A DNA stretch of 64,000 nucleotides from Mobula hypostoma. Taxonomy: Eukaryota. The DNA lies in the NCBI RefSeq assembly GCF_963921235.1, contig NC_086097.1, forward strand, positions 41,170,001 to 41,234,000, in the 5' to 3' direction. Below are positions 5,776 through 36,439 of this stretch, piece by piece (position 1 is the first letter of the stretch; each line of letters begins with the position of its first letter). The notes below the pieces were generated by a model, which saw only the letters and a list, made by a program, of their open reading frames with translations, made no database searches and had not been told where the DNA came from. Both the position numbers and the translations under genes were made by a program.

Positions 5776-6306
5776 TGGCCTCCTCCACTGTCGTGATGAA
5801 GCCACACTTAGGTTGGAGGAACAAAACCTTATATTCTGGGTAGCTTCCAGCCTGATGGCATGAACATCAATTTCTCAAACTTCCAGTAATCCCCCCCTCC
5901 ACCACCTTCACCACTCCCCATCCCCTTTTCCCTCTCTCACTTTATCTCCTTGCCCGCCCATTGCCCCCCTCTGGCGCTCTTCCCCCCTTGTCTTTCTTCC
6001 ATGGCTTCCTGTTCTCTTCTGTCAGACTCCCCCTCTTCCAGCTATGTATCTCCTTCAGTCAACTTCCCAGCTCTTTACTTCATCCCTCCCCCTTCAGATT
6101 TCACCCATCATCTTGTGTTTCTCTCTCCCCTTCCCCACCTTTTAAATCTACTCCTCAGGTTTTTTTCCTCCAGCCTGCCAAAAGGTTTTGGCCTGAAACA
6201 TTGACTGCTTACTCTTTTCCATTGTTGCTGCCTGGCCTGCTGAGTTCCCTCTACATTTTGTGTGTGTTGCTCAGATTTCCAGCATCTGCAGATTTTCTCG
6301 TGTTTG
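5776..6306 (+). mobile_element. Penelope-like element 3' fragment (end of GIY-YIG ORF plus pseudo-LTR)
   Basis: Colinear with 28323-28900 (GLL-C-DEATLRLEEQ...QPD-MNI-FSNF); pyrimidine-rich UTR; decayed hammerhead at ~6170-6206. Confidence 0.85.
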
Positions 6307-9659: not shown

Positions 9660-10030
9660 AATAAAACACAATGTCTGAGCAGCATCAGTGGAGGGAAAAG
9701 AATGGTCGATGTTTCGTGTCATCAGGACTGAGAGCCAGTATAAAGGGGAGGGGGAAGAGGTGTGACAGGAGCTGGGTGAATATAGGTGGGGGAAAATAAA
9801 GATGGTGTGTGAATGGAGACCGATGGGGTGGGGTTGGTGATGTTGGGAATCACAAACTGGAATGAGAGGTGGTCACAGAAAAGGAAGGAAGAAACAAGCA
9901 AGGCAGGGGGAGCCAAGTGGGGAGAGGGGATGGTGAAGCTAGAGGCTGGAGGGTGATGAGGGGAGGCACAAGAGGTGCGAGTTTTGCACTCTGATAAATA
10001 AGGTAGTTGATAGGTGGAACCAGAGGTGAG
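9660..10030 (-). mobile_element. Penelope pseudo-LTR remnant
   Basis: Minus strand CAGTCCTGATGA...GAAACATCGACC and GATGCTGC motifs; purine-rich plus strand corresponds to the pyrimidine-rich pLTR. Confidence 0.55.
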
Positions 10031-10033
10031 AGC

Positions 10034-12222
10034 TGCGGGCTAAGGCCAATGTCAAGCAGGCTTTAGATGATCTGAGTAATGGGATCAACTTGCACGAAAC
10101 AGCACACCCTAACGCCTTCACCATCGTTTTGGGAGATTTTAATTAGGCTAGTGTGAAAAAATCACTAAGCAACTGCCATCAACAGATCACTTGCAATACC
10201 AGAGGAAACAACACACTGGACCATTGCTATAACATCATCAAGAATGCCTACCATGCTATCCCACGCCCTCACTTCAGGAAGTCTGATCACCTCGCTGTAC
10301 TTCTACTCCCCGAGTATAGGCAGAGACTGAAGACTGCACCACCCGACTGCAGTGAGGGCTAAGAAGGTATGGACAAGGGAAGCACAGGAGTGCCTACAGG
10401 ACTGCTTTGAATCGGTGGCCTGGACCGTATTCAGGGAGTCATCTTCGAACCTGGATGAGTATGCTACAGTTGTTACTGACTTCATTAAAACCTATATGGA
10501 TGAGTGTGTGCCTACAAAGACTTACTGTACATTCTCAAACCAAAAGCCATGAATGAACCAGGAGGTACGTTGTCTGCTGAAGGCTGGATCTGTGGCATTC
10601 AAGTCTGGCGGCCCAGGCCTATACCAGAAAACCAGGTATGATCTGCGGAGGGCTATTTCAAGGGCAAAGAGACAATTTTGAAAGAGGTTGGAGGTGGCAT
10701 CAGACTCACAGCAACTCTGGCAGGCTCTGCAAGACATTGCTTCCTACAAAGCAAAGCCCAATGACATGAATGGCAGTGATGCTTCACTACCAGATGAACT
10801 CAACATCTTCTACGCACACTTTAAAAGAGAGAACACAACTATAGCTGTGAAGATTCCTGCTGCACCTGATGACCCTGTGATCACTGTCTCAGAGGCTGAT
10901 GTCAGAATCAGAATCAGGTTTATTGTCACTGGCATGTGACGTGAAATTTGTTAACTTAGCAGCAGCAGGCTGCCTTTAAAGAGAGTGAACCCTCGCAAGG
11001 CGGAAGCTCCTGATGGAGTACGTGGTAAGGCTCTGAAAACCTGTGCCAACCAACTAGCGGGAGTATTCAAGGACATTTTCAACCTCTCACTGCTAGGGGC
11101 GGAAGTTCCCACTTGCTTTAAAAAGGCAACAATTATACCAGTGCCTAAGAAGAATAATGTGAGCTGCCTTAATGACTATCGCCCAGTAGTACTCACATCG
11201 ACAGTGATGAAATGCTTGGAGAGGTTGGTCAGGGGTGTATACTTAACCCACTGCTCTACACTCTATATACCCATCACTGTATGGCTAGGTATAGCTCAAA
11301 TACCATCTATAAATTTGCTGATGATACCACCATTGTTGATAAAATCTCAGGTGGTGACGAGAGGGCGTACAGGCGTGAGATATGCCAACGAGTGGAGTGG
11401 TGCGGCAGCAACAACCTGGCATTCAACATCAGTAAGATGAAAGAGCTGATTGTGGACTTCAGGAAGGGTGAAATGAAGGAACACACACCAATCCTCACAG
11501 AGGGAATCAGAAGTGGAGAGAGTGAGCAGCTTCAAGTTCCTGGGTGTCAAGTTCTCTGAAGATCTAACCTGGTCCCAACATATCGATGCAGTTATAAAGA
11601 AGGCAAGACAGCGGCTGTACTTCATTAGGAGTTTGAAGAGATTTGGTATGCCTACAAATACACTCAAAAACTTCAATAGTTGTACCGTGGAGAGCTTTCT
11701 GACAGGCTGCATCACTGTCTGGTATGGAGGGGCTACTGCACAGGACCGAAAGAAGCTGCAGAAGGTTGTAAATCTGGTCATCTTGGGTACTAACCCACAA
11801 AGTACCCAGGACATCTTTAGGGAGCGGTGTCTCAAAAAGGCAGCGTCCATTATTAAGGACCTGCAGCACCCAGGGCATGCCCTTTTCTCACTGTTACCAT
11901 CAGGTAGGAGGTACAGAAACCTGAAGGCACACACTCAGCAATTCAGGAACAGCTTCTTCCCCTCTGCCATCTGTTTCCTAAATGGACATTGAATCTTTGA
12001 ACACTACCTCACTTTTTTTTAAACATACAGTAATTCTGTGGTTGCACTTTTCTTAATCTATTCAATATACGTAATTGATTTACTAGCTTATTTATTTTTT
12101 TATTTTATTTATTATTATTATTTCTTTCTCTCTGCTAGATTATGTGTTGCATTGAACTACTGTCTCTAAGTTAACAAATTTCACGTCACGTGCCAGTGAT
12201 AATAAACCTGATTCTGATACTG
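10034..12222 (+). mobile_element. Rex1/Babar-type LINE, 5'-truncated, with internal deletion
   Basis: APE endonuclease motifs (GDFN, TRGNNTLDHCY, SDH); RT motifs (NDYRPV-LTS, KFADDTT); C-terminal FRNSFFP; AATAAA plus GATTCTGAT tail; stops and frameshifts. Confidence 0.9.
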
Positions 12223-12289
12223 ATTGTGGGGAAAAAAAGAGAAAGCAGGAGCACCAAATAATCCCATACATTCTTTCTAGTTTCTTATC

Positions 12290-14942: not shown

Positions 14943-15548
14943 ATCTCAAAGGACTTGAGAAAATTAAATACTTCCTTGATGTAATAACACTGTTTTGAAT
15001 CAGGAAAATGCAACCTATTTGCCCACAGCAAGCACCTCAGTTGATGAGATAATGGCCTGTTCTTGTGCTTTTGCGATTTTGATTAAAGAGGAAAAGTCAG
15101 TCTTTTATCTTTTCAAAGATAAAATCAGGAAATCCTCGGTTCTTTAATTACAATACAGGGTCTTTCACATCCAGCGGGGAGAATAGCTGAGGCTTCAGTT
15201 TCGTGCCTTTACTTAGCGGATTTCCCATTCCCCTGGACTGTGGCCAGCCTGAGTAATGCGCTCAAATCTGCACAGTGATTTGATTCCAAAGAATGAGAGT
15301 TCCTACCGAGTCAAGACACATGCAATTTTTGTAAATTTTGTGTTCTGGGTGAAGAAACTATCACCAGTAGGTCACATTCTGAATATAAGCTGCTTTCATT
15401 ATGACTAATTCCTGAAATTTCTAATAAACTTACTGAGTGGCAAAGGCTACAAGCTGGAACTGCAGCCTGGTTAAATTATTCCCATTGTTACAACACTCAC
15501 AACACGCTGGAGGAACTCAGCAGGTCGAGCAGCATCCGTGGAAAGGAT

Positions 15549-15586
15549 CAGTTGACGTTTCGGGCCGGAACCCTTCATCAGGACTG
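15549..15586 (-). ncRNA. Minimal type I hammerhead ribozyme motif, core intact
   Basis: Minus strand CAGUC-CUGAUGA-A-GGGU(UCCG)GCCC-GAAA-C-GUC-AACUG: full catalytic core, stem II, palindromic ACGU stem III, GUC cleavage triplet; one C/A mismatch in stem I next to the core. Confidence 0.75.
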
Positions 15587-15875
15587 AAGAGAGAAGGGGC
15601 AGAGGCCCTATAAAGAAGGTGGGGGAGGGTGGGAAGGAGAAGGCTGGTAGGTTCCAGGTGAAAAACCAGTCAGGGGAAAGATAAAGGGGTGGGGGAGGGG
15701 AAGAGGGGAGGGGCTCCCCCCCCCCACCCCTTTAACACAGAGGGGATCCCCTCCCTGCTTCCCCTTCCCCACCCCTTTATCTTTCCCCTTACTGGTTTTT
15801 CACTTGGAACCTACCAGCCTTCTCCATCCCACCCTCCCCCCACCTTCTTTATAGGGCCTCTGCCCCTTCCCTCTA

Positions 15876-15913
15876 CAATCCTGACGAAGGGTTCCGGCCC
15901 GAAACATCAACCA
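15876..15913 (+). ncRNA. Minimal hammerhead ribozyme motif, partly decayed
   Basis: CAAUC-CUGACGA-A-GGGUUCCGGCCC-GAAA-C-AUC-AACCA; core and stem II retained, ACGU palindrome and stem I damaged. Confidence 0.6.
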
Positions 15914-16199
15914 ATCTTTTCCACAGATGCTGCCCAACCTGCTGAGTTCCTCCAGCGTGTTGTGAATGTTGCTTTGACCCCAGCATCTGCAGAGTATTTT
16001 ATGTTTCCCATTGTTACAATATGGTAGATGTCTCAAACATGTACACCTACCTTTTCATGCAGTTTACCAGTGTGGATTATTTACTTTTTCTTATCAGCAA
16101 TCTGTAGCTGGATCAGCACAAACTAATGACTGGAGATGTATATAGAAATGTGCTTATTAATATGAGAGAATTGTGTTTTAAACAATCCAGGGTGCCACC

Positions 16200-16333
16200 T
16201 GTAATATTGATGTGACTCGGACACCGCTGTAGATTGAACAGCCACATTTATTCACCAGACTTCCGTTTTTACTTCTCGCCGTCCTAAAGTCATACGCACT
16301 CTGAAGCTACGAATACTCACACAATACATTACA
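16200..16333 (-). repeat. 3' LTR of the Gypsy element
   Basis: TGTAAT...ATTACA termini; ungapped alignment with 20531-20664 with about 15 mismatches by hand count. Confidence 0.95.
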
Positions 16334-16344
16334 TCCCCCTTCTT
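16334..16344 (-). promoter_or_regulatory. Polypurine tract
   Basis: Minus strand AAGAAGGGGGA directly abuts the 3' LTR. Confidence 0.9.
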
Positions 16345-16550
16345 AAGATTTTGTTTTCTTTTTACAACACTGTGAGTTACCAAAACAATGCCTCTAGGTA
16401 TGTCCTTCTTACAGTGCAACGACCATGACATAAACTAAAAAAATCTTACCTTCTTGTACTGTATTCTGCATTATATCTTACAATACTTACAGCAGTGTAT
16501 TTTCTTTTACTAACATAAACTAATAAACCTTTTATTTTACACCTTGGAAC

Positions 16551-17750
16551 TTATGACATGTGTGGCTTTACCTCAAACTGTGTGAGACTGTATGTATGTC
16601 TAGTCTCTGCATCTGCTGGAAGTTTGACCTGTCTCCCAGACTGTGTGTGATACAACAGTGACTGTGCTTGTCCTTCATCCCTGTCAGTCTCTCGAGTGGC
16701 CTCTGTGTTTTTGTGGTCGGCATCATTCTTGGTGTCGTTTGTTTCCATGTCTGTATCTGTGGAAATGTCCTGTGCATCTGTACGTGGAAACTCCCTCTCG
16801 CCTGTCTTCAGCAGATGCTTCCTGTTCCTCCTGTAGACTCTTCCATCCGGCGTGCGAACTATGGAGGATCTTGGTTGCTGATGTCTGTTCACAACCACAG
16901 CTGGTTGCCAAGTGTCTCCTCTCTGTATTCTGACATTTTCACCTGTATGCAGATCTGGCAACTGTCTTGTATGTCTGTCATAGTAGCTCTTTTGCTTTAT
17001 TTGCTTGTACTTTTGCTTGTCATGTACTTGAGCATTACCTTCAGGAGTCAGTAGAGTTGTGGATGTTGGCAGTTTGGACTTCAGACGACGTCCCATCAAC
17101 AGCTGCTCAGGAGAGAACCCCACACCCTCAGTCGGTGTGTTGCGGTATTCAAGCAGAGCAATGCAAGGGTCACCGTTGCTGCTATGTGCCTTCTTGAGCA
17201 TGTTCTTGTCAGTTTGTACAGTTCTCTCTGCTTGTCCATTAGACTGAACGTGCCCTGGACTGGAAGTAACATGTTGAAATTCCCAGCTTTCTGAGAACCC
17301 TCTGAACTCACCACTGGCATATTGTGGACCATTGTCACTAACGACAATATCTGGAATCCCATGTCTTGTGAATGCCGACTTCATTGCGATAATGACACCT
17401 CGACTGGACGTGTCACTTAACTTGGTGATCTCCGGATATTTTGAATAGTAGTCCACACAAAGCAGATACGCTGCACCATTGTAGTGAAAGAGATCTGTGC
17501 CAATTTTCTCCCATGGTCTTCCTGGTAGTGGGTGGGGAAGCAGAGGCTCTCTTGGATTGCTGTTTTTGTTTTCATTACAGACAGCACACTGAGACACACT
17601 GTCCTCTATCTGAGTTGACATGCCTGGCCAATAGAGAATGTCTCTTGCTCTTTCTTTACATTTCACTATCCCCAGGTGTGACTCATGAATTCTGTTGAGC
17701 GTTTCCTGTCTCATTTGGTTTGGTACGATGAGTTTTGCCATTTTGAACAT
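16551..17750 (-). pseudogene. Gypsy integrase segment
   Basis: HHCC zinc motif (HESHLG...CAVC); DDE motifs GTDLF, SDNGPQY, SNGQAER; C-terminal RRNRKHL. Confidence 0.9.
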
Positions 17751-17902
17751 TAGTCCTGATGCATAGCTGATTTCCTCTTTAAATGTCTAGTATTTCTGCA
17801 TGTCCTTTGGAACGTCTTTTCTTTCTGTTGGCCATCCATTCATTATAATGTCTCTTAGCATTTGCATTTCAGGATCATCTGCAGTCACTTTCCTGAACAT
17901 GT

Positions 17903-19848
17903 TCAACTTCTCCTCAGAGATGGTAGCTGAGGTGTAACCCAGTTGACTTCCAGCTCTCTTCCTAGCAACTCTTCCTTTTGCTCTTTGAGGTAAGCACGGC
18001 TCAAAGCATCAGCGATGTACAGTTCTTTTCCTGGCTTATAGGTGACTGTGAGAGTGTACCTCTGTAGCCTGAGAAGCATCCTTTGCAGCCTCATAGGAGC
18101 TTGGTAGAGTGGCTTTTTGAAGATGCTCTCAAGTGGTTTGTGATCACTCTCAACCTGGATTTCTTTGCCATATACATATTGGTGGAACTTCTCACACCCA
18201 TAAACTATGACGAGTAATTCCTTCTCGATTTGAGCATATTGGCATTGACAGTCCGTAAGTGCTCGTGATCCATACACCACAGGCCTCCCATCCTGCAGTA
18301 TAATAGCTCCTACTCCCTCCGAACTGGCATCCACAGACATCGTCACCGGTTTATTGACATCATGGAACTTGAGTGCTGGTGTATTGGTAACCAACTGCTT
18401 CAATGTGTCAAAACTTTTATTTTGTTCGTCTTCCCAATGCCATTCAGTGTTGCTCTCTAGTAGCTTTCGGAGTGGAGCGCTGACCTCTGATAAGTTGGGA
18501 ATGAATTTGGCAAGATACTGCATCATGCCCATGAACCTCAATAGTTCTTGCTTGTCTTTGGGTGGTGGTAGCTGTACCACTGCTCTGACCTTTTCATCAT
18601 CAGCGCTGAGTACATGACCTATATATTTGATCTCTGTAGTTCTGATCTGACATTTACTTTTGTTCAGTTTTAGGTTGTACTCACGTGCTCTCTCCAGGAG
18701 CTTCCTCAGTCTCTGATCATGTTCCTCAATTGTGTCACCCCATATCAGCAAATCATCAGTGATGTTGACCACCCCGCCCAAGCCTTCAATCATTTGTGCC
18801 ACGGATCTCTGGAATACCTCTGATGCAGAAGAAATCCCAAAGGGTAGACGCAGGAAACGATATCCCACTATGGGCGTGTTGAAAGTGCATAATTTGGAAC
18901 TTTCTTCATCCAGCTTGATCTGCCAGGAACCTTGATTTGTGTCTAATACTGAAAAGTATTTTGCATTAGGCATGCGGGAGACAACCTCTTCAACCGTGAG
19001 CAGCAGATAGTGCTCTCTTTTGATGGCTTGGTTGAGATCTTGTGGATCCATGCAAATCCTCGTCTTTTTTTCTGTGACCACTGTCACCATACTATTCACC
19101 CAGTCGGTCGGTTCTATTTGTCTTGTTATGACTCCCATCTGTTCCATACTGTGTAGCTCCTCCACTACTTGATCCCTGAGAGCTACTGGAATCTTTCTCA
19201 GGGCATGCACGACTGGTGTGATAGTTGGATCAATCTGGATATGGTGTTTCCCTGGTAAACATCCTAATCCAGAAAACAAGTCATCAAAGTCTTTGAGGAT
19301 GTCATTTTCTTTTTCAACACCATAGATTTGCTTCACCAGGCCTAGCTTTGTGCATGTTGCTTTGCCCAGTATTGCTGAAACATGTTGCTGTACTATTTCA
19401 AACTCGATCTTGTATTGTTGACCTTTGAACACACAGGTGAGTGCTTTTTGCCCAGTGGCGCCATCTTGTGGCCGAAATATGCAACCAGCTTGCAGGTGGA
19501 TTTTCTCAGTCTTCCTCTGATATCCAGTGAGTTGAATGTTTCTGATAACATTACATTGCACTTTGCCTCAGTGTCAAGCTTAAATGTCACATTTTTCCTG
19601 TTTATTTTCAGATCTTGAGTCCAATCATCTTCATCCTCCATCTCTGCATTGTCAATATTCTTGATGCATACCTCCTGTTCCACTTCAACTCTGCCAATGA
19701 ACATGTCACTGTTGCCCTCACTCTGTACCACAGCATGCATTTTCCTTGCGTGCTCCTTCGATTTGCACATCTTTACAAAGTGATTTCTGACATAACTTGC
19801 ATGTCTGACCAAAGGCTGGACATTTTCTGTATCCATGTTTATAACCAT
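17903..19848 (-). pseudogene. Gypsy protease, reverse transcriptase and RNase H segments (frameshifted)
   Basis: FKLDTEA (DTG motif altered); RT LPFGISSA and NITDDLLIWG; RNase H VDASS, YAQIEKELL, SDHKPL; split across ORFs 19393-19848 and 17903-19561. Confidence 0.9.
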
Positions 19849-20482
19849 ATCTGCTGCAGTTAACTTCCTTTAGATCATCCTGTGGAGCTGGCTTTGTCCT
19901 ACTCTTGTCAGTTTTCACAGTTTTTACTTTGTGCACTACAATCTCTTCATTGAGCACTTTAACCTGACTTGACGTGATCTCGCTGGCACGGCAAACATCA
20001 ATCGCCTTTTCTAATGTAAGATCTGCCTCTCTCAATAACCTGCCTCTCACTTGATCATCTCGTATGCCGCATACAATCCTGTCACGTATTAAAGAGTCAT
20101 GCAGTTGTCTAAACTCAGAGTCTTTTGCCTTGCTCTTCAAATCTGTTACATAGGCGTCTATGGTCTCCGTTGGTCCTTGAGCCCACGTGAAAAACCTGTG
20201 TCGGATGTACGGTAGGTTTCTTCTCGGTTCGCAGTAATCTTGAAACTTTTTCTTCAACACTTCAATTTTATCTTGCTCATCATCTTGGAAGACAAACATG
20301 TTGCAAACCTTTATTGCCTCTTCCCCTGCCACATGCAGAAACGTAGCACATTGCACTTTCTCCGTCTTTTCAGCTACGCCGGTAGCGGTGCAAAACAGCT
20401 CAAACTTCTGGATCCATATTTTCCAGTTCTCAGCGAGATTACCTTGTAGGCTTAAACTTGACGGTGGTTGTAACTGTGACAT
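19718..20482 (-). pseudogene. Gypsy gag segment
   Basis: NW--W-QKF N-terminus, IRDRIVCGI, LTLEKAIDVCRA, degenerate zinc knuckles; frameshifted relative to the protease. Confidence 0.85.
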
Positions 20483-20518
20483 CTTTTACATGTCTTCTCT
20501 TCCTTTTTATCGCGATTT

Positions 20519-20530: not shown

Positions 20531-20664
20531 TGTAATATTGCTGTGACTTGGACACCACCGTAGATTGAACAACCATGTTTATTCACCAGACTTCCATTTT
20601 TACTTCTCCACGTCCTGACGTCATATGCACTCTGACGCTACGAATACTGACACAATACATTACA
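20531..20664 (-). repeat. 5' LTR of the Gypsy element
   Basis: Direct repeat of 16200-16333; followed by CCACC. Confidence 0.95.
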
Positions 20665-21734
20665 CCACCCATTCCCAAGGGTTTATAAAAAGTGGATGGC
20701 ATTTAATACAGAGGCATGTGCATTAATAATCCCTTTGCAGATTTAATTTTAATGCAGCCGCAGAAAACGAAGTGGCCACATCTTTTTAAAAGCAGGTTTC
20801 TCTTTCATGTCTTTATATTTTTGAAAACCGCATGCTGCTTTTACACATTTTGTTATAGGAAAATGATATATAGATCTATTGAAGTTATCAGAGACAGTCA
20901 GAATGAAACGGGACATAGTGCAGTACTTCTGCTAATGCAGCTTCTCAAGACAATCCTCTGCAGACTAAGTACACCTCTAAGCTGCTTTGAGGGGATTTTA
21001 AAATCATGGCTGTATTTAAAGCCAGCCATGTCCATCTCATCAAAACTGAACAAGATCTGTAACTGAAATTATTCTAGCAATAAACACAATGGTATTTACA
21101 GTAGAAGTGATGAGATATTGTGGATAAATTCTGCATTACTCACCTCCTCCTTATCATTTTGTTTTAAATGTTAACAAAGACAAAAGTTTCCACTCAGGAG
21201 TATCGCAGCAGGGCAGTGAAACTTAACCACCTTTAACACCTGCTCAACTTTGTAATCCTTGAAAAGTGGTGTTTTAATTGTCTACTATTAAATGTGGCTT
21301 AAGAAATTTCCTGTTAAATAAAAGATATAACCCTAGATATGCCAAAAGAGATGCAAGTATTGAAATGTGTACAGAATTCATGAGGTTATGTTCTGCTTTC
21401 AATATTACATTAAGAATATTGAGCCAATCAGAAACTGAGTTTAGGTAAACAAAGACATATGCAGCCAACAAATGCTCTGTGTAGCACAGTGGCAATAAAA
21501 GCAAAGATGATGATAAATGTCATTCCAGGAAGCTTCGCCACAAGACATGGATTTTGGAGGAAAATAATCTTCAGAAGTTTCAATATATCCTGATTGCTTT
21601 GTAAAGAACAGGCCTAACAGACAAATCTGAATGCTATTACAGAGCGAAGGATATCTAACATTTTCCTAGTGCTGCCACAAATAGCCAGAGCAAAAGAATG
21701 TGAGTATGCTTAGCTTGTTTAGTACCAGAAAATA

Positions 21735-26599: not shown

Positions 26600-26935
26600 A
26601 GAGTCATAGAGCACAGAAACAGGCTGTCTAGCTGATCTAGTCTGTGCCAAACTGTTATTCTGCCTAGTCTCATCGACCCGCATCCGGACCGTCGCCCTCC
26701 ATACCCTTTCAATCCATGTACTTATCCAAACTTCTCTTAAACGATCCAATCGAACCCACATCCACCATAGATGCTGCCTGGGCTGCTAAGTTCCTCCAGT
26801 ATTTTGTGTGTGTTGCCCACATGTGCCACTTCCACTGGCAACTCATTCACACCACCCTCTGAATGAAGAATTTTTCTCCCTCATGTTTCCCTTAGATATA
26901 TCAACTTTCCCCTTTCAACAATGTCCACTAATTCT
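26600..26935 (-). mobile_element. CR1 LINE 3' fragment with a ~50-bp Penelope pLTR insert
   Basis: Matches the antisense CR1 end at 48715-48975; 'atagatgctgcctgg...gtgtgttg' at ~26767-26815 matches 28817-28866. Confidence 0.65.
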
Positions 26936-27288
26936 AGTAGATTGGATGGCATAACCTAGAAAAGCTTGGTTGTTGTTATTTCCTTGTTCAATTGCTTCCC
27001 ACCTATGTTCGTGACACTTCTCACGCTCTCAATTTTTTCGATGATTTTAAGTTCCCTGGTCCCCACCGCATTATTTTCACCATGGATATCCAGTCCCTAT
27101 ATACTTCCATCCCCCATCAGGAAGGTCTCAAAGCTCTCCATTTCTTTTTTGGATTCTAGACCTAACCAGTTCCCCCCTACCACCACTCTGCTCTGTCTAG
27201 CGGAATTAGTCCTTACTCTTAATTAGTCCTTACTCTTAACAATTTCTCCTTTGGCTCCTCCCACTTCCTCCAAACTAAAGGTGTAGCT

Positions 27289-28440
27289 ATGGGCACCCGT
27301 ATGGGTCCTAGCTATGCCTGCCTTTTTGTTGGCTTTGTGGAACAATCCATGTTCCAAGCCTATACTGGTATCTGTCCCCCACTTTCCTTCGCTACATCGA
27401 CGACTGCATTGGCGCTGCTTCCTGCATGCTTCCTAAGCTCGTTGACTTCATTAACTTTGCCTCCAACTTTCACTCTGCCCTCAAGTTTACCTGGTCCATT
27501 TCTGACACCTCTCTCCCCTTTCTTGATCTTTCTGTCTTTATCTACTGATATCTACTATAAGCCTACGGACTCTCACAGCTACCTGGACTATTCCTCTTCT
27601 CACCCTGTCTCTTGCAAAAATGCCGTCCCCTTCTTGCAATTCTTCCATCTCCGCCGCATCTGCTCTCAGTATGAGGCTTTTCATTCCAGGATGAAGGAGA
27701 TGTCCTTTTTTAAAGAAAGGGGCTTCCCTTCCTCCACCATCAACTCTGCTCTCAAACACATCTCTCCCATTTCACTCACATCTGCTCTCACCCTGTCCTC
27801 CTGCCACCCCACTAGGAATAGAGTTCCCCTTGTCCTCACCTACCACCCCACCAGCCTCCGGGTCCAACCTATTATTCCCCGTAACGTCCGCCACCTCCAA
27901 TGGGATCTCACCACTAAGCACATCTTTCCCTACCCCACTCTGTCTGCTTTCTGCAGGGATCTCTCCCTACACGACTCCCTTGTCCATTTGTTGCCCCCAT
28001 CCCTTCCCACCTATCTCCCTCCCAGCACTTATCCTTGTAAGCAGAACAAGTGCTGCACATGCCCTTACACTTCCTCCCTCACCAACATTCAGGGCCCCAG
28101 ACAGTCCTTCCAGGTGAGGCGACACTTCACCTGTGAGTCAGCTGGGGTGATATACTGTGTCCGGTGCTCCCGATGCGGCCTTCTATATATTGGCGAGACC
28201 CGACGCAGGCTGGGAGACCGTTTTGCTGAACACCTACGCTCTGTCCGCCAGAGAAAGCAGGATCTCCCAGTGGTCTCATATTTTACTTCCATGTTCCATT
28301 CCCATTCTGACATGTCTATCCATGGCCTCCTCTACTGTCAAGATGAAGCCACACTCAGGTTGGAAGAACAACACCTTATATTCTGTCTAGGTAGCCTCCA
28401 ACCTGATAGCATGAACATTGACTTCTCTAACTTCCGCTAA
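27289..28440 (+). pseudogene. Penelope RT C-terminal part plus GIY-YIG endonuclease
   Basis: TDIYYKPTDSHSYL; GVIYCVRCSRCGLLYIGETRRRLGDRFAEH; RYIDD lies in another frame, so this 383-aa ORF includes compensating frameshifts. Confidence 0.88.
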
Positions 28441-28469
28441 TGCCCCACCTCCCCCTCGTACTCCATCTG

Positions 28470-28520
<51 letters not shown>

Positions 28521-28540
28521 TTTTCTCTCTCTCTCTCTCC
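28470..28540. repeat. Compound microsatellite (TTTA)n(TC)n in the Penelope 3' UTR
   Basis: Directly visible; about 13 TTTA units then a TC run. Confidence 0.95.
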
Positions 28541-28768
28541 TTTTTCTCCCTCTGTCCCTCTCACTATACTCCTTGCCAATCCTCTGGGCTTCCCCCCTCC
28601 CCCTTTCTTTCTCCCTGGGCCTCCTGTCCCATGATCCTCTCATATCCCTTTTGCCAATCAACTTTTCAGCTCTTGGCTCCATCCCTCCCCCTCCTGTCTT
28701 CTCCCATCATTTCGGATCTCCCCCTCCCCCTCCCACTTCCAAATCTCTTACTATCTCTTCTTTCAGTT

Positions 28769-28804
28769 AGTCCTGACGAAGGGTCTCGGCCCGAAACATT
28801 GACT
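28769..28804 (+). ncRNA. Minimal hammerhead ribozyme motif in the Penelope pLTR (CpG-decayed)
   Basis: AGUC-CUGACGA-A-GGGU(CUCG)GCCC-GAAA-CAUU-GACU; stem I AGUC/GACU and stem II intact; CAUU replaces CGUC. Confidence 0.7.
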
Positions 28805-29907
28805 GTACCTCTTCCTATAGATGCTGCCTGGCCTGCTGCGTTCACCAGCAATTTTTATGTGTGTTGCTTGAAATTCCAGCATCTGCAGATTTCCTCATGT
28901 TTGTTGTTGTTACTTACTCACTTTTAGGCTATGGTTTTTAATGTCCCAAAGGATCTAGGGCTCCTTTGACTGCAGTGAATTTCTCTTGGATTTACACTGA
29001 TTCCATCATATCAGGTTCTTCCAGAAGTGACTGGCAGCTGCTGTCATCTGAAACTTCTGCAGTCACTGCATTTCACAACAAACAATGATAGTATGAGCTA
29101 ACAATTACAGTGTTTTGATCATTGACACCTTATCAACAGTAGCAAATTACCACTTTTAGTTCATTCGGCGAATGATTGTCTTGCCATAGACAGGCAAAGT
29201 TGCCTTTGTCTGAGCAAAGGGCCTTGCATGTGTGCATGTGATTGGTAACCATGCAAAAGCAAGCATTTTGATAAATGAAGCAGAGTATCCAAGTGTGTGA
29301 CCTTGCTAAAGGTATAGGAAGTAATTAGCTTCACCACGGAAGGGCCCACCTTTAAGTGGAGCCATGACAGGAGACCCATTAAGTGAGGCTGATGGGAGTG
29401 TAAGAATGTCAGAGTTGGCCCCATGCATCAGAAGATCTGTAAGAGCAAATGTCATTTCTGGACGCAGCTGATTACAATTCTAACAGATCGGTTAAAATCA
29501 AAAAGCACAACACAGGGACTTTCGGAAAGGGCCAAGCAGAAAATGCAATTTTTCAGCATTGTTGAAAATAAATCATAAACAAACTTGTGAGATCAGGCAA
29601 GAAATTGAAGATCAGCAGGGCTTGCGCAGTCCTGATCACCTCGACGTGCACACAAGAGCCTGGTGATGTATTTTTTTCAAAGTGAATTAATATTTAAGAG
29701 TTTGTATCAGAACGTTACACTGTGACAGGAGTGTCTCCGAAAACAGCAAACCATGAACTTTCTTTGAGATATTTTTGAATAAAATGGAAGGTCTGAAGTG
29801 CTTACTTTTTAACGACGTAGTTAGGAATGATGTTAAGTTTGTTTGTTGGCTTGCTGTTAATCTTTCATTTCCTCTGGTTATTTTCCCATCTTATCTGATA
29901 TAAAGTA

Positions 29908-35800: not shown

Positions 35801-36439
35801 TAGAGTTTCTTGTGTTCCTGTATTCTATTCTGTCACAATGAAAATTATGGAAATTACCCTTTTAGTCCCGACGAAGCGTCTCAGCCTGACTGTTTATTCC
35901 CTTCCATATCTGCTGCCCGACCTGCTGAATTTCTCCAGTATTTTTTGTATTGCTTTAGATTTCCACTGATGATTACATAGTCACCATCTGTGAAGTGGAG
36001 AGATGAGTACTGGATAACATATTGAGTTAGCCCATTATCTGTTCCCTTCAATTTGAAACCAGTCAGGCTGGTAACATTAATTCGGAAAGTGCCCTCTGCG
36101 AAGTCACACAGTCCGCTCTGTCTTGCTCTTACTGGCATGTACTTGGGTGACCGGTAATATCTGACATGTGTCAAGAGTCAGTCGTGCAATCGTGCTTTGC
36201 AGTACATTGTAGAGGCATTTCTGACAATTAGAATGACATCAGGAGGCCATGATGTTCATATTGCCCATTTATGTGTGGGTCAGACACAAAGATGTCATCA
36301 AAAAAAGGCTATAAACACGTCTGTAAGTGTATTTCATTTAATAGCGCAGAATCTATAGCCAAAGCACAGCAAAAAAAGGTGCAAATAGGAAGGAACAACT
36401 GCTGTCGGAATTGGGTTTGGAGAATATCCTTTTACAATA

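Follow-up and report, generated by a model that had tools for sequence, protein, structure and literature searches.

The window, by which we mean the whole 64-kb stretch of DNA that was analysed, holds at positions 15491–16004 a palindromic unit of 514 bp in which two inverted arms face each other around a 34-nt spacer, as the initial annotation had described. A repeat scan recovered two ungapped inverted pairs, 15491–15625 with 15837–15971 (91%) and 15621–15719 with 15742–15840 (93%), and the arms 15491–15711 and 15746–15971 are ~92% complementary, with 18 differences at the 219 sites compared (8.2%); the borders of the arms and of the filler between them were set by alignment to a natural family copy. 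The left, short-ended arm (15491–15711, minus strand) is the inverted, 5′-truncated 3′ end of a Penelope-like element (PLE) without its tail, extending from ~−255 to −34 as counted from the tail end, and the right, tail-bearing arm (15746–16004, plus strand) is a second 5′-truncated 3′ end extending from ~−259 to the tail end. The last 33 nt of the latter (15972–16004, plus strand) form a one-sided PLE tail that has no pairing partner, is seen also in sister copies and was absent from the earlier description; such tails are described in the available passages of PMC8557442, PMC3846280 and PMC11167929.

Flanking the unit is a 15-bp target-site duplication (TSD), TTCCCATTGTTACAA, whose copies at 15479–15493 and 16005–16019 (plus strand) are 100% identical and which is present once at the empty site. 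The last three nucleotides of the left copy, CAA, also match the element, and both the repeat and this 3-nt microhomology agree with the annotation. The 34-nt junction filler (15712–15745), unique in the genome according to the repeat scan and a 30-mer match count, contains 20 nt that copy part of the left arm in snap-back fashion (15715–15734 versus 15682–15701), a few untemplated nucleotides and the left half of a 14-bp palindrome (15740–15753) that lies at the start of the right arm. No contig from two DNA and two putative RNA runs covered 15715–15744 at 96%, a gap that proves nothing. The unit lacks long ORFs, in agreement with the annotation's 'no ORF', yet the parent ORF is represented in each arm by its first ~30–40 codons. 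On the minus strand an ATG at 15578 opens a frame (MKGSGPKR..., 15494–15578) that runs into the flank here and continues into a reverse transcriptase (RT) ORF in the sister loci L162 and L163.

A hammerhead motif had been proposed for each arm, and both core motifs are indeed there, although both are decayed and the plus-strand copy is broken. The minus-strand motif (15548–15587), a minimal type I hammerhead by sequence reading and fold, is nearly intact, with its core CUGAUGA at 15581–15575, GAAACGUC at 15561–15554 and, over 15587–15548, a C-A mismatch in the first stem I pair as its sole defect. Its plus-strand counterpart (15875–15914) keeps the core CUGACGA (15881–15887) but has one of six stem I pairs left and a broken stem III pair (GUC to AUC). 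These calls rest on direct reading against the minimal hammerhead (min-HHR) description in PMC4209133, because Rfam lists no hammerhead family here at E ≤ 10 and its scan of the window at the gathering score gave no match. The 124 Rfam matches at E ≤ 10, generic and of hairpin or miRNA type, all fell below the gathering score and were rejected as reflecting shape only. According to the parts of PMC4209133 and PMC11167929 at hand, PLE min-HHRs need dimerisation or protein help. In the parent family, sequence reading found the core and stems I–III kept in 32 of 162 typed arms. Inside the hammerhead core, at the CpG site −120 of the family (window 15885 and 15577), lies the codon with which the ORF opens; 133 arms have ACG there and 33 have ATG, so the active element may have initiated at a non-ATG codon or used a different start. 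RNA folding of the whole unit predicts the long hairpin that had been expected of transcripts from either strand, at −436 kcal/mol (z −40) for the plus and −468 kcal/mol (z −36) for the minus strand, with none of 100 shuffles as stable in either case.

The insertion of the unit as one event, also proposed earlier, is borne out by the 15-bp TSD and by an empty orthologous site. In run X9, from another organism, a contig of 321 nt (depth 4.7) joins 15303–15478 directly to 16005–16139; in it neither arm is present and the TSD sequence occurs once, so that it represents the empty site, the evidence being this single low-depth contig of one run. Contigs from runs X1 and X5 extend from the left flank to 15515, which is 22 nt beyond the TSD where the bridging standard is 31, and only suggest that the insertion is present in those organisms.

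The parent element

As judged from sequence, each arm represents the 3′ end of an abundant Neptune-type PLE of ~3.7 kb, a length that includes an estimated ~130 nt of 5′ pLTR, with predicted RT and GIY-YIG domains. Upstream of the arm start other copies share further sequence of variable length, and the RT and GIY-YIG sequence found there supports the Penelope origin that the annotation had assigned to the unit. One copy (L053:1513–3444, minus strand) has a 643-aa open stretch that matches RVT_1 (E 1.1e-7) and contains DKG and YIDD motifs, a CX3CxxC linker (CKRKCYTC, aa 517) and the GIY-YIG motif GVIYCIRCSQCGLLYTGET. Its close homologues match PF00078 and in some cases PF01541 too, the closest named ones being from rays and sharks (63–83% identical); a PDB sequence search with the parent ORF returned nothing at E ≤ 0.01.

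The family thus has the set of characters expected of an EN+ PLE: a single ORF in which the RT is followed by a C-terminal GIY-YIG endonuclease with internal cysteines, a minimal type I hammerhead in the pLTR, and a 30–40-bp one-sided tail together with an inverted 5′-truncated copy and a TSD. In L162 and L163 the hammerhead, the tail and the RT are covered by one continuous frame, so that the pLTR overlaps the ORF start. The CKRKCYTC linker is of the CX2-5CxxC form, which the passages of PMC8557442 available here give as a Neptune criterion and report also in Nematis and Naiad, and its presence points to a probable placement in the Neptune clade. Exact matches to a 20-mer of the arm number 4,906 in its own genome, and the difference in age between subfamilies of the parent family was not significant (P 0.20). 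The window element itself is an ordinary, decayed stub among hundreds of similar palindromes.

Rules of the sister two-armed insertions

Head-to-head pairs in the same genome were found by pattern, with selection by spacer range and exact 13-mers: 12 had spacers of 0–99 nt, seven of 100–130 nt and 104 of 131–330 nt, and a search at shorter range gave 111 pattern matches, of which 50 were listed and 35 examined. Over three sets of loci, those without a chain of two arms numbered 6 of 69, 25 of 40 and 18 of 28, at least seven of the 25 having an inverted partner nonetheless. The third set was selected by tail, and its 18 loci without a two-armed chain indicate that single-armed copies are common; a TSD score of at least 8 was obtained for 17 of 42 single-armed copies, with a wider search window and no control.

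The sister insertions follow a strict rule, in that one arm is tailed and the other short-ended in 86 of 88 chains. The two non-conforming loci, L039 and L070, one of them mis-chained and the other with a partial tail, were excluded from the arm analysis, and L089 was left out of later arm counts as a duplicate. All 63 resolved pattern loci among the 69 examined have one tail and one short end, their short-ended arms stopping 26–64 nt short of the tail end, and exactly one full tail was present in 34 of 35 very short units and two tails in none. Bracketing TSDs scored at least 8 in 83 of the 88 chains, compared with 0 of 150 swapped-flank controls, and measured 9–18 bp with a mode of 14 (34 of 80). 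Microhomology of at least 1 nt between the short end and its target was present in 55 of 70 insertions against 29% in the control, a count from which L064 was omitted; that two-armed insertion lies inside a related PLE 3′ end, and its TSD is consequently PLE sequence.

Either arm can reach further in the 5′ direction, the longer one being the short-ended arm in 37 insertions, the tailed arm in 17 and neither in four (n = 58; binomial P 0.009). The inner junctions are variable: among 72, 14 overlap, eight are blunt, 21 have a filler of 1–5 nt and 29 a longer one, many of the long fillers being copies of nearby element sequence. Template jumps during joining are suggested by the filler of L100, which contains two telomere-type CCCTAA units, and by that of L041, where 49 nt come from the ORF region downstream of the tail. 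Among the very short fold-backs (L173–L201), both arms end at −118 to −129 in 22 of the 50 listed, the lower bound of −118 being set by the search pattern itself. These ends lie at the front edge of the hammerhead, 25–30 nt downstream of TTTATAG (window 15848–15854), which we take to be TATA-like, and coincide with TCAGTC, presumably an Inr-like motif; their position fits an RT running off the 5′ end of its RNA.

Templates and mechanism of insertion

To compare the arms of each insertion, 86 arm pairs were projected on a common frame. The mean arm difference was 6.8% within insertions as against 8.3% between them. At −130 (A/T), an inherited non-CpG site, the two arms were discordant in 23 of 77 pairs against a background of 0.9%, and at −88 (T versus G/A), likewise inherited and non-CpG, in 14 of 82 against a background of at most 1.4%. 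Six of 75 pairs were discordant at both of these linked sites, where 0.009 would be expected. Over the 21 listed non-CpG polymorphic columns 135 of 661 comparisons were discordant, versus an any-base background of 4.3%, and 19 of 85 pairs had no discordance at columns of this kind. Since they carry different family variants, discordant arms were likely copied from two separate RNA molecules, although the same discordance would follow if a tandem transcript carried the pLTR twice or if the arms had later undergone ectopic gene conversion. Concordance within insertions was nevertheless above that of random pairs (permutation means 37 and 41; P 0.0004 and <0.0001). As the arms are more alike than random pairs, a share of the insertions may come from one template or source locus, and the excess fits either two templates drawn from the copies then active or a mixture of one- and two-template insertions. 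The window's own arms differ at −130 (non-CpG) and −93 (CpG), so that the two-template call for this copy rests on one non-CpG and one CpG site.

The one-tail rule, the finding that either arm may be the longer, the ~14-bp TSDs and the discordant arms together favour two-template priming over self-priming. We put at roughly 0.7 the probability that the 514-bp unit is one EN+ PLE insertion, consisting of two 5′-truncated 3′ ends joined head to head and likely primed from both nicked strands on two RNA templates. In such an insertion the GIY-YIG domain would nick the two target strands ~14–15 nt apart, whereupon one 3′-OH would prime at the tail end of the first template and the other, aided by 1–3 nt of pairing, 30–45 nt further in on the second. 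Both cDNAs would stop early, in the window copy after ~220 and ~260 nt, and their 3′ ends would snap back briefly before being end-joined, leaving the 34-nt filler, while fill-in would create the TSD. The inserted copy would then have decayed neutrally, without spreading.

We also lean towards the broader proposal that PLEs integrate by a double-template reaction, in which one complex, probably a dimer, would hold two RNA templates, the nicked strands would prime on one template each, each from one of the two start sites that bound the tail, and head-to-head joining of the cDNAs would follow. If this is true, the thousands of two-armed insertions in the genome are a fossil record of the reaction, and genomic evidence in its favour, as opposed to self-priming, is provided for the first time by the mixed-subfamily arms. 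Such a reaction would also explain the long perfect-hairpin templates strewn through genomes of this kind. The interest lies in the set of sister insertions and their two-template signal, the single element being an ordinary one. PMC8557442, in the part available to us, describes as undefined the way in which PLEs come by their inverted units and one-sided tails, and a two-template proposal for PLE inversions was not found in the freely accessible main texts searched.

The alternative that survives best, although we consider it unlikely, is that in this same one-off PLE insertion a single template gave rise to both arms by self-priming or snap-back, and that mutation or gene conversion made them differ afterwards. 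For Penelope of Adineta, the available text of PMC3846280 proposes self-priming on an antisense template, starting from palindromes at the inverted junctions; the window junction offers both a 14-bp palindrome and a 20-nt snap-back, and the concordance of arms above that of random pairs points the same way. However, a self-folded tailed cDNA cannot give the class of insertions in which the short-ended arm is the longer (37 versus 17), the inherited transversion sites are discordant at 12–34 times background with six pairs discordant at both, and 43 of 72 junctions, being overlapping, blunt or with filler of at most 5 nt, show no fixed hairpin.

The initial annotation had proposed that the unit belongs to a non-coding fold-back family, that is, a non-autonomous, ribozyme-bearing one moved as a unit by the PLE RT and endonuclease, and this we regard as very improbable. 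Hundreds of palindromic units exist (123 and 111 pattern matches), and two junction sequences recur among the shortest of them (L187/L194 and L190/L195). Yet the junction 30-mer of the window matches once in 3.48 Gb with up to two mismatches, and inversion points vary and many copies are single-armed, both of which the annotation had named as signs of a one-off inversion. Junctions form a continuum in the sister loci (69 of 123 and 35 of 111 pattern matches examined), none of the 69 being an independent insertion of the same unit. When the 514-bp unit was compared with its own genome (3.48 Gb), 4,799 candidates were obtained and the best 40 scored; both arms were found in one match at none of the other 39 best-scoring places of the 4,799, each of which matched one arm, beginning near query position 256. 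L187 and L194 carry the tail on opposite sides of their common junction, and L190 and L195 have different short-end positions and TSDs, as expected for convergent hot-spot events. L088 and L089 owe their common junction to a segmental duplication (94% over 1.7 kb including flank). This pair apart, no junction was shared among the sister loci studied (69 of 123), and inner ends and fillers differed throughout the 58 two-piece chains of this set.

It is highly unlikely that the family inserted here twice independently, with the second copy placed at the 5′ end of the earlier one, or that the arrangement arose by a later inversion through recombination. It is true that the window arms differ at subfamily sites and that the family sometimes inserts into related PLE sequence, as in L064; but one TSD brackets both arms in the window and in 83 of 88 loci, both arms are missing together at the empty site, and the strict one-tail rule (86 of 88) would be unexpected from independent events. 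Just as hard to credit is a retained function of the locus as a hairpin RNA, possibly a siRNA source or ADAR substrate. The predicted fold is very stable, and the minus strand has 11 C>T against three G>A changes, with most substitutions leaving G-U wobbles. G>A changes number 8 in the tailed arm, more than in any other of the 172 arms (mean 1.8), so that G-U pairs persist in the predicted minus-strand hairpin, which exceeds the plus-strand one in stability by 32 kcal/mol. After correction, however, this excess of G>A changes falls short of significance (P 0.0005 × 172 = 0.08), the arm divergence of 8.2% is no lower than the between-copy family mean of 8.3%, and there is no A-to-G scar (0 A>G in either window arm).

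Related systems and other elements of the window

In L1 twin priming, both nicked strands prime and an inversion arises within one TSD, the arms copying different, non-overlapping parts of one RNA. The PLE insertions would share with it the priming of both strands and have the single TSD in common, but they are not twin-priming products because both PLE arms copy the same 3′ segment, and unlike those of L1 their arms often differ in subfamily alleles.

Among the structural characters of the window unit, the inverted 5′-truncated copy, the tail, the TSD and the opposite-strand hammerheads are already published. An inverted 5′-truncated copy with a one-sided 30–40-bp tail is the textbook PLE layout as set out in the available passages of PMC8557442. 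As in the EN+ PLE units described there (Craig et al. 2021) and in the parts at hand on Pen2a_Av and Pen2_Av of Adineta vaga (PMC3846280), an inverted 5′-truncated copy adjoins the 5′ end, a tail of 30–40 bp is found at one end only, a TSD surrounds the whole, and the pLTR and tail overlap the ORF start. Unlike those units, the window copies are too truncated to hold any RT or endonuclease sequence, and the TSD mode is 14 bp here versus 8–10 bp in the rotifer examples given. A test of one against two templates forms part of our analysis, and the passages of PMC8557442 and PMC3846280 at our disposal contain none.

Dual min-HHRs ~100–700 bp apart on opposite strands are reported in the available portion of Cervera and de la Pena 2014 (PMC4209133). 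The window motifs resemble the metazoan PLE min-HHRs described there in being type I motifs with a palindromic 15.2–16.2 pair in the pLTR, and appear by their sequence to differ from them in that the plus-strand copy is broken and the minus-strand one has a mismatch. A hammerhead and tail in frame with the ORF start are also found in Adineta Pen2a (PMC3846280) and the anole element PAc (PMC11167929), to go by the excerpts available.

PAc, the Poseidon of Anolis carolinensis, offers a biochemical counterpart: as far as the accessible text of Frangieh et al. 2024 (PMC11167929) goes, it cuts and extends both strands, its RT starts at two sites bounding the tail, it is predicted to be a dimer, and its ORF starts inside the hammerhead. 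By analogy, the mechanism proposed above would match this biochemistry, although PAc belongs to a different PLE clade; the Poseidon clade lacks the CX2-5CxxC linker, whereas the parent family of the window has one. The same text, in the passages available, does not derive the inverted unit from two templates. Non-LTR retrozymes, as presented in the part of bioRxiv 10.64898/2026.07.22.740005 at hand, are likewise non-coding, pLTR-derived and equipped with a type I hammerhead, but they are head-to-tail tandem units that amplify, every unit holding a complete hammerhead, whereas the window unit is head-to-head, single and unamplified. Assignment to the retrozymes was rejected, the arms being inverted and one hammerhead motif broken.

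Elsewhere in the window, a longer and older related PLE copy at 26983–28913 has a hammerhead and tail of its own and 63% amino-acid identity to aa 168–643 of the parent ORF, and further old PLE ends lie at 6174–6305, 9676–9716, 26765–26816 and 35898–35956. Two 58-bp inverted repeats (10902–10959 and 12166–12223, 95%), which start with an ATCAGA-type repeat, enclose LINE-like RT sequence of ~1.2 kb; a further two-armed insertion or an inversion at a later time may account for them. On the minus strand, ~16500–20500 contains open stretches of 255, 554 and 411 aa, which we take to resemble gag and pol of an LTR retrotransposon; they are accompanied by a direct repeat at 16200–16339 and 20531–20670 (88%).
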